From: Candidatus Moraniibacteriota bacterium
GTDB lineage: Bacteria; Patescibacteriota; Minisyncoccia; Moranbacterales; UBA2206
DNA: 64,000 bases
Assembly (NCBI GenBank): GCA_049297495.1
Contig: JBAQUL010000026.1
Span: 64,620 to 128,619 of the forward strand
Direction: 5' to 3'
Shown here: positions 2,814-2,855 of the stretch, piece after piece
Layout: every line of letters begins with the position of its first letter
Position numbering within the stretch: position 1 is the stretch's first letter
Notes under the pieces: model-generated
Database searches by the model: none
Told to the model about the DNA's origin: nothing
What the model saw: the letters and a program-made list of their open reading frames with translations, nothing else
Position numbers and translations under genes: made by a program

Positions 2814-2855
2814 CCAGGAGTTGAGCTCCTGGAGCCCCAGGAGCTCAACTCCTGG
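2814..2855. promoter_or_regulatory. Perfect 19-bp inverted repeat with 4-bp spacer (CCAGGAGTTGAGCTCCTGG-AGCC-CCAGGAGCTCAACTCCTGG) in the divergent guaB/guaA intergenic region
   Basis: The sequence is read directly and the second arm is the exact reverse complement of the first. It sits between divergently transcribed guaB and guaA start codons, so it is a candidate operator or 5'-UTR structure. Confidence 0.5.

Follow-up and report, generated by a model that had tools for sequence, protein, structure and literature searches.

Between the divergent genes guaB and guaA of this Moraniibacteriota genome, shortly before the guaA start codon, lies a perfect GC-rich palindrome. What such an element does there, acting as DNA, as RNA or perhaps not at all, and how it arose, are the questions raised by this locus. 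The initial annotation had offered two possible roles: an operator for a purine-responsive repressor, or a very stable 5'-UTR hairpin that occludes translation initiation of guaA. We addressed these possibilities using the window (the whole 64-kb stretch of DNA that was analyzed), the corresponding spacers of related lineages, public genome and metagenome collections, and predictions of RNA folding.

The palindrome and its genomic setting

The divergent arrangement and the identities of both genes, as first annotated, are confirmed by NCBIfam equivalog models (Table 1). The window also encodes purC and pyrD. Its GuaA protein is identical to one encoded by a metagenome-assembled genome named Candidatus Moraniibacteriota, which belongs to the Patescibacteria (CPR). 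Both direct reading and a repeat search identify positions 2814-2855 as a perfect inverted repeat of 42 bp, CCAGGAGTTGAGCTCCTGG-AGCC-CCAGGAGCTCAACTCCTGG, with 19-nt arms that are 100% complementary and an AGCC loop, in agreement with the original description. Each arm is itself self-complementary (CCAGGAG-N5-CTCCTGG, a 7-5-7 hairpin), which bears out the earlier remark that the arms are internally near-palindromic. The 5-nt arm centers (TTGAG and CTCAA) are asymmetric, invariant, and exact reverse complements of each other. Nineteen nucleotides separate the palindrome from the guaA ATG (2875-2877); the distance of 20 nt given initially is the offset.

The palindrome is far above chance expectation. 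No other perfect short-loop inverted repeat in the window is as long: the runner-up has arms of 14 nt, and the longest arm obtained in 20 block shuffles of the window was 12 nt. Its G+C content is ~64% versus ~40% for the region. The initial view of it as the most GC-rich and most structured element of the region thus holds on composition, arm length, and predicted RNA folding (z of -7.9).

An N-terminal extension of guaA via the in-frame TTG at 2821 was considered and rejected. Among the 117 listed GuaA homologues with an intact N-terminus (three further hits are N-terminal truncations), none has a palindrome-like extension; their starts coincide with the equivalent Met or differ from it by no more than a few tens of residues. 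The GuaA family model, which begins at residue 5, also counts against such an extension.

Table 1. Features of the guaB-guaA locus and occupants of the variable interval in related lineages. Locations are window positions unless a contig is named.
Feature	Location	Strand	Size	Description
guaB	1267-2730	-	487 aa	IMP dehydrogenase; NCBIfam equivalog model above cut-off
AT-rich module	2731-2787		57 nt	aaagttNNatttaataataatattaggattataaactatcttgaccaaataatcaa; present in full in 9/9 complete spacers
Variable 5' flank of palindrome	2788-2813	+		AU-rich hairpin, 2793-2797 with 2802-2806
Palindrome	2814-2855	+	42 bp	Arm 1, 2814-2832; loop AGCC, 2833-2836; arm 2, 2837-2855
Alternating heptads CCAGGAG/CTCCTGG (n=4)	2814-2820, 2826-2832, 2837-2843, 2849-2855			Centers 11-12 bp apart
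A/U-rich linker	2856-2874	+		CTTTAAAAATTTCAAAAAT; without Shine-Dalgarno
guaA	2875-4692	+	605 aa	Glutamine-hydrolyzing GMP synthase; NCBIfam equivalog model above cut-off
Terminator-like hairpin	1214-1239			AAAAGAGTGGA-aaaa-TCCACTCTTTT
Terminator-like hairpin	33229-33263			AAAAAACACTTCGA-cgtaaat-TCGAAGTGTTTTTT
Variable interval, L038			12 nt	No insert
Variable interval, L023			21 nt	No insert
Variable interval, L026			29 nt	No insert
Variable interval, window, L010, and L024			88 nt	Palindrome
Variable interval, L028	Element at L028:1836-1986		177 nt	~150-nt element with long closing stem
Variable interval, L036	Element at L036:1600-1752		235 nt	Homologue of the L028 element
Variable interval, L030	Spacer at L030:1492-1800		252 nt	Element with inverted repeats, related to that of L039
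Variable interval, L039	Insert at L039:95-255		~270 nt	Element with inverted ends TGTCATCCTGAGCG.../...CGCTCAGGATGACA

Independent assemblies and copies elsewhere

The palindrome is real and not an assembly artifact, because it is present in independent assemblies and read sets. The spacer is base-for-base identical in an independent Logan assembly, SRR28062512 (L011), and related versions of the palindrome occur in JGI 3300004242 (L010) and JGI Ga0172380/3300037810 (L022/L024). A Logan contig from SRR6484325 (L025:1-50) breaks off inside the palindrome. Perfect palindromes break de Bruijn assemblies, and such elements may therefore be under-represented in short-read metagenome-assembled genomes (MAGs).

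The initial annotation had suggested looking for other copies near pur or gua genes. In the window there are none: we found neither a second copy of the arm at up to 3 mismatches nor a second 7-N5-7 site at up to 2 mismatches, including near purC and pyrD, and no further arm or 7-N5-7 site occurs in the extra flank provided by L011. This mismatch-tolerant search covered ~70 kb of the roughly 1-Mb source genome. Scanning for the exact arm gave 9 matches among 185,579 species-representative genomes and 11 among the contigs of the JGI metagenome collection. Two of these are genuine, one in the guaB-guaA spacer of L010 and one in that of L022/L024; the others are lone arms in unrelated and mostly GC-rich DNA, at about the number predicted by chance. 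In the collections scanned, too, the palindrome thus occurs only in this spacer. No exact arm was detected in IMG/VR viral contigs. A blastn search of PLSDB gave no match, on which ground plasmid or vector origin was rejected. The lone matches include two inside 16S rRNA genes, of a Saccharibacteria MAG (L001:6246-6264) and an actinomycete MAG (L002:4505-4523). Arm 2 corresponds there to a hairpin with the conserved GCUCAAC loop of these two foreign genes; the flanks are unrelated, and derivation from 16S rRNA was rejected in favor of coincidence.

Correia and RPE elements are extragenic palindromes related in kind to REP and MITE elements. The palindrome resembles this group (for REPs, see PMC3733652) in being ~40 bp long, GC-rich, and extragenic in an AT-rich genome, and the same site is occupied in sibling lineages by an element that has terminal inverted repeats and comes from a dispersed family. 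Unlike REP/MITE elements, it is a single copy in the DNA searched, and by reading it has no GTAG/CGTC family tag. The element as a whole is an inverted repeat, and a target-site duplication is not clear: runs resembling TTAAAAA flank it (2797-2803 and 2858-2864), away from its edges. Classification as a dispersed repeat was rejected, given that the arm scans of the window, L011, genomes, metagenomes, and viral contigs recover only the orthologous locus.

The spacer in related lineages

We compared guaB-guaA spacers from ten lineages in which the guaA protein is 62-92% identical to that of the window. Nine spacers are complete; the contig of L039 is cut inside the 57-nt module. The palindrome is absent from 7/10 of these lineages, all with the same divergent guaB-guaA arrangement, so that the conservation in relatives that was to be checked extends to only a few of them. 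What all nine complete spacers have in common is the 57-nt AT-rich module that abuts guaB, together with the AUG-proximal sequence. L036, L038, and L039 share the AUG-proximal "aaaaat" of the window, and L028 and L030 have close variants of it.

Between these two parts is an indel hot spot, which ranges from 12 to 252 nt among the complete spacers when measured from "aataatcaa" to the guaA ATG (Table 1). The gene table of P0003 gives a guaB-guaA spacer of 41 nt, too short for the palindrome-bearing version. The 19-mer that ends the L039 insert was also recovered from 39 IMG/VR contigs, which places this insert in a dispersed family of small repeats; it is absent from the window. As judged from these comparisons, the palindrome is one of several unrelated, putatively hairpin-forming occupants of the hot spot. 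Most likely it was inserted, or replaced other sequence, as a single lineage-specific copy within a hypervariable part of the guaA leader.

Another occupant upstream of guaA, the ~150-nt element of L028 and L036, is a candidate structured leader RNA or, alternatively, a MITE whose inverted ends are conserved. RNAalifold predicts 31 pairs for the two sequences compared, 6 of them with compensatory double changes. Searches of the relatives' loci against Rfam, this element included, gave no gathering-level match.

A putative bidirectional promoter

The 57-nt module contains matches to promoter consensus sequences in both directions, which we treat as candidates given that the promoters of this phylum are poorly known. 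On the guaB side (- strand) we identified TTGATT-17-TATAAT (-35 at 2786..2781, -10 at 2763..2758), which agrees with the sigma-70 consensus at 10/12 positions. On the guaA side (+ strand) the candidate is TTGCAT-17-TAATAT (-35 at 2725-2730, -10 at 2748-2753), the -35 of which overlaps the guaB start codon. It is the only promoter-like site on the + strand that is kept in 9/9 complete spacers, and no promoter-like site was found between the palindrome and guaA. We read the module as a compact bidirectional guaB/guaA promoter. Since the conserved promoter-like site is upstream of the palindrome and there is none downstream, the palindrome most likely falls within the guaA 5'-UTR (~115 nt) and is probably transcribed as part of it. 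A sigma-54-like GG-N10-GC inside the palindrome, seen by eye, is a weak match. The module itself is partly palindromic.

Predicted folding of the guaA leader

As RNA of the guaA strand, the palindrome is predicted to form a 19-bp hairpin of -39.6 kcal/mol (-24 as DNA); an alternative fold consists of two 7-bp hairpins that together amount to -22.8 kcal/mol. The long hairpin dominates the predicted fold of the leader (z-scores of -6.6 to -7.9), and relatives without an insert have unstructured leaders (z of -0.7, -1.1, and +0.5). This lack of significant folding led us to reject the idea that the palindrome is an expansion hairpin of a long-range leader structure.

Folding of the leader had been proposed as a check on occlusion of guaA. 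The prediction upholds one half of that proposal, a stable and probably transcribed hairpin, but not the other, as the hairpin is self-contained: in the predicted fold, the start codon and the preceding 19 A/U-rich nt are not paired with it. The energy needed to open positions -19..+13 is 5.25 kcal/mol with the palindrome versus 6.38 after its in silico deletion, and 6.5-7.6 kcal/mol in insert-free relatives. Because there is no pairing with the initiation region and the opening energy is not increased, occlusion by base pairing is not supported.

Use of Shine-Dalgarno sequences in this genome is low (6/30 ORFs). The linker of guaA is therefore normal in lacking one, and AGGAG within the arms does not act as a ribosome-binding site. 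Sequestration of Shine-Dalgarno or anti-Shine-Dalgarno sequences (AGGAG and CTCCT in the arms) was rejected on the same count and because AGGAG is at least 31 nt from the AUG. Searches of Rfam 15 returned only sub-threshold, miRNA-like hairpin noise for the palindrome and no gathering-level match for the whole window. A known cis-regulatory RNA family (riboswitch or leader) was rejected, as neither evalue nor gathering mode gave a match.

Conservation and recombination

Compared with L024, the window differs at 6/57 positions of the module, 5/26 of the 5' flank of the palindrome, and 0/19 of the 3' linker. Inside the palindrome the arms differ at 0/19 and 1/19 positions and the loop at 1/4. 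The only changes within the palindrome among the three lineages that carry it are C to T in the loop (L010 and L024) and G to A in the terminal pair (L024), so that two lineages have perfect arms and the third has nearly perfect ones. Both substituted positions are those least costly to a hairpin. No compensatory pair changes occur within the arms among the three lineages. The deficit of arm substitutions (1/38 versus 11/102 elsewhere) is suggestive, not significant (Fisher p=0.11; Poisson P(<=1)=0.085, with 4.1 expected).

The genes on either side are far more diverged than the spacer, with nucleotide identities between the window and L024 of 63% for guaA and 76% for guaB. The window guaB is closest to that of L030 (88%); the window guaA is closest to that of L010 (92%) and ~63% identical to all others. 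The guaB of L010 is in turn closest to that of L024 (83%). In the palindrome-bearing variable part, L010 and L024 have 3/87 differences, with guaA 63% identical. These incongruent guaA and guaB identity matrices suggest recombination across the spacer, that is, allele replacement with a breakpoint at the spacer. Alternatively, L010 could be a chimeric short contig. If recombination did occur, the spacers with the palindrome may owe their likeness to recent exchange no less than to constraint.

Possible origin and role of the palindrome

We tentatively favor, as possible rather than probable, a reading in which the palindrome is a transcribed hairpin of the guaA leader, lineage-specific and with a modest post-transcriptional effect that involves no purine sensing. 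The upstream bidirectional promoter would transcribe the guaA leader, with the palindrome at -61..-20 of the 5'-UTR. Its RNA would fold into a GC-rich 19-bp stem-loop and leave the A/U-rich initiation region, which has no Shine-Dalgarno sequence, free. The hairpin may protect the leader or direct its processing, for example as an exonuclease barrier or an RNase III-type substrate, or else have a mild steric influence on loading of the 30S subunit. Successive fold-back (template-switch) inverted duplications could have produced the element, as suggested by its nested symmetry (7-mer, 19-mer hairpin, 42-mer). Given that most relatives lack the palindrome, any function must be dispensable.

A strong rival, although a somewhat unlikely one, is that the palindrome is a functionless by-product, either a palindromic duplication that arose spontaneously by fold-back or template switching or the remnant of a small mobile element. 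It would have entered a permissive indel hot spot, be effectively neutral, and have reached a few lineages by homologous recombination via the highly conserved flanks. Sibling lineages hold quite different inserts in the same interval, one of which has terminal inverted repeats and belongs to a dispersed mobile family, and three lineages have merely 12-29 nt there. The incongruent gene matrices and the near identity of the L010 and L024 variable parts beside diverged guaA genes fit a recent transfer, an argument that is weakened if L010 is chimeric. The excess conservation of the arms, too, is not significant; nonetheless, the arms stayed perfect or nearly so while the rest of the spacer gained ~10% differences (~4 arm substitutions expected, 1 seen), and a hairpin of this stability at -20 is unlikely to be without any effect once transcribed. 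Recurrent gain of structure can also be read in the opposite way, as selection for structured leaders, which we regard as quite improbable. The hot spot would then be a "landing pad" between the ultra-conserved guaB/guaA promoter and the 5' end of guaA, at which unrelated hairpin elements (the 42-bp palindrome, the ~150-nt stem structure with compensatory changes, and MITE-like inserts) were repeatedly gained and retained, and the repeated acquisition would itself imply that selection. The phased heptads of the palindrome would bind a CPR protein, or an RNase, that tunes GMP synthesis in salvage-dependent organisms.

Action as a DNA operator is unlikely. The palindrome would provide two 19-bp dyads, with centers 23 bp apart, that are bound cooperatively by a dimer-of-dimers factor controlling guaA and/or guaB. 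Its confirmed location in the divergent promoter region, with the palindrome center ~84 bp upstream of the inferred guaB transcription start, would suit such a factor, as would the four heptads, which by reading of the sequence fall roughly on one helix face at a spacing of 11-12 bp. In having two neighboring dyads roughly two helical turns apart, the palindrome is reminiscent of tandem phage-type operators. Cooperatively bound tandem dyads are known from the lambda OR/OL-type operators and from PurR/PurBox purine operators, and the palindrome is like them in having two such sites in a divergent purine-gene promoter region. However, it bears no resemblance to the PurR box (ACGCAAACGTTTGCGT), and within the scope searched it has no regulon copies, cognate regulator, or conservation with the promoter. 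There is no other site in the 64 kb at 2-3 mismatches, including near purC and pyrD; the site is missing in 7/10 related lineages that keep the promoter module; and no DNA-binding regulator was seen among ~25 scanned window proteins or the genes called in L011. A hairpin needs the invariant, asymmetric arm centers to be exactly complementary, and an operator does not. The purine-repressor operator of the initial annotation is thus not borne out, and the palindrome should not be annotated as one. A role in attenuating or terminating transcription within the guaA leader, or in insulating the divergent genes from each other, is highly improbable. The very stable GC-rich stem is followed by CUUU, as might suit a terminator, but the tail (CUUUAAAAAUUU) has no U-tract and a scan of 2500-3100 gives 0 terminator-like sites, whereas the terminator-like hairpins of this genome are bordered by runs of A and T. 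Intrinsic termination was rejected given the negative scan and the wrong tail. Nor does attenuation fit well, as there is no alternative antiterminator pairing (the long-hairpin and two-hairpin folds end in the same 3' stem) and no Rfam match.

Comparison with known elements

Some bacterial mRNAs are stabilized or processed through 5'-UTR stem-loops, such as ompA-type 5' stabilizers and RNase III leader hairpins. The palindrome resembles the 5'-UTR stabilizers in its predicted stable, self-contained hairpin that leaves the ribosome-binding region free, and its perfect 19-bp duplex approaches the length of RNase III substrates. Unlike the stabilizers, it is dispensable in most relatives, and it is known here from sequence and predicted fold.

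More broadly, the palindrome is a fresh instance of an already described feature class, perfect short-spacer inverted repeats. A survey of 118,019 genomes found that bacterial perfect inverted repeats prefer a 4-nt spacer, peak at about -50 bp from the start codon, and gather more substitutions in spacers than in arms (PMC13155455). The palindrome shares the perfect arms and 4-nt spacer of this class, is centered ~40 bp upstream of the start codon, and has a spacer substitution with the arms kept. It differs in that its arms, at 19 nt, are at the long end of the class and are themselves palindromic; this sequence is without documented function.

Palindromic stems in non-coding DNA of Patescibacteria are also found in the tigRNA units of TIGR-Tas systems, which have box C/D motifs and two unpaired spacers enclosed by the stem, and which form arrays beside a tas gene (bioRxiv 10.64898/2026.09.09.750476; PMC12045711). 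Unlike these, the palindrome is fully paired save for its 4-nt loop, occurs as one unit, and by reading lacks box motifs. Among the window proteins scanned, none looked Tas-like. Identification as a TIGR stem-loop guide unit was rejected because the architecture does not fit.

If the palindrome did bind a factor, it would offer a rare handle on gene regulation in Patescibacteria, about which almost nothing is known. As it stands, the element matters little, being one more inverted repeat upstream of a gene, with patchy conservation and no regulon found. The 57-nt AT-rich module is the real candidate for a regulatory core of shared guaB/guaA control in these CPR genomes, and a structured element of greater interest may lie in the insertion hot spot beside it in L028 and L036. 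This module, the hot spot, the covarying ~150-nt element, and the synonymous conservation at the start of guaA are noteworthy by-products of the analysis.

Other features of the locus and window

The first 60 nt of guaA (2875-2934) are nearly invariant across lineages, synonymous sites included, and past this point divergence rises abruptly to 25-45%. We found no RNA structure that would explain the constancy, which may reflect constraint on the initiation region or recombination. The 605-aa GuaA is ~90 aa longer than the 512-position family model, with the main match at residues 5-483 and a second, separate matching stretch. Homologues in the same CPR group are likewise ~600 aa long.

The hairpins at 1214-1239 and 33229-33263 look like bidirectional intrinsic terminators. 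The window also includes a giant ORF of 4,912 aa (10520-25258, - strand), which also runs off the end of the L011 contig, and other long ORFs of 1,755 aa (26705-31972), 1,394 aa (38510-42694), and 1,043 aa (33280-36411).
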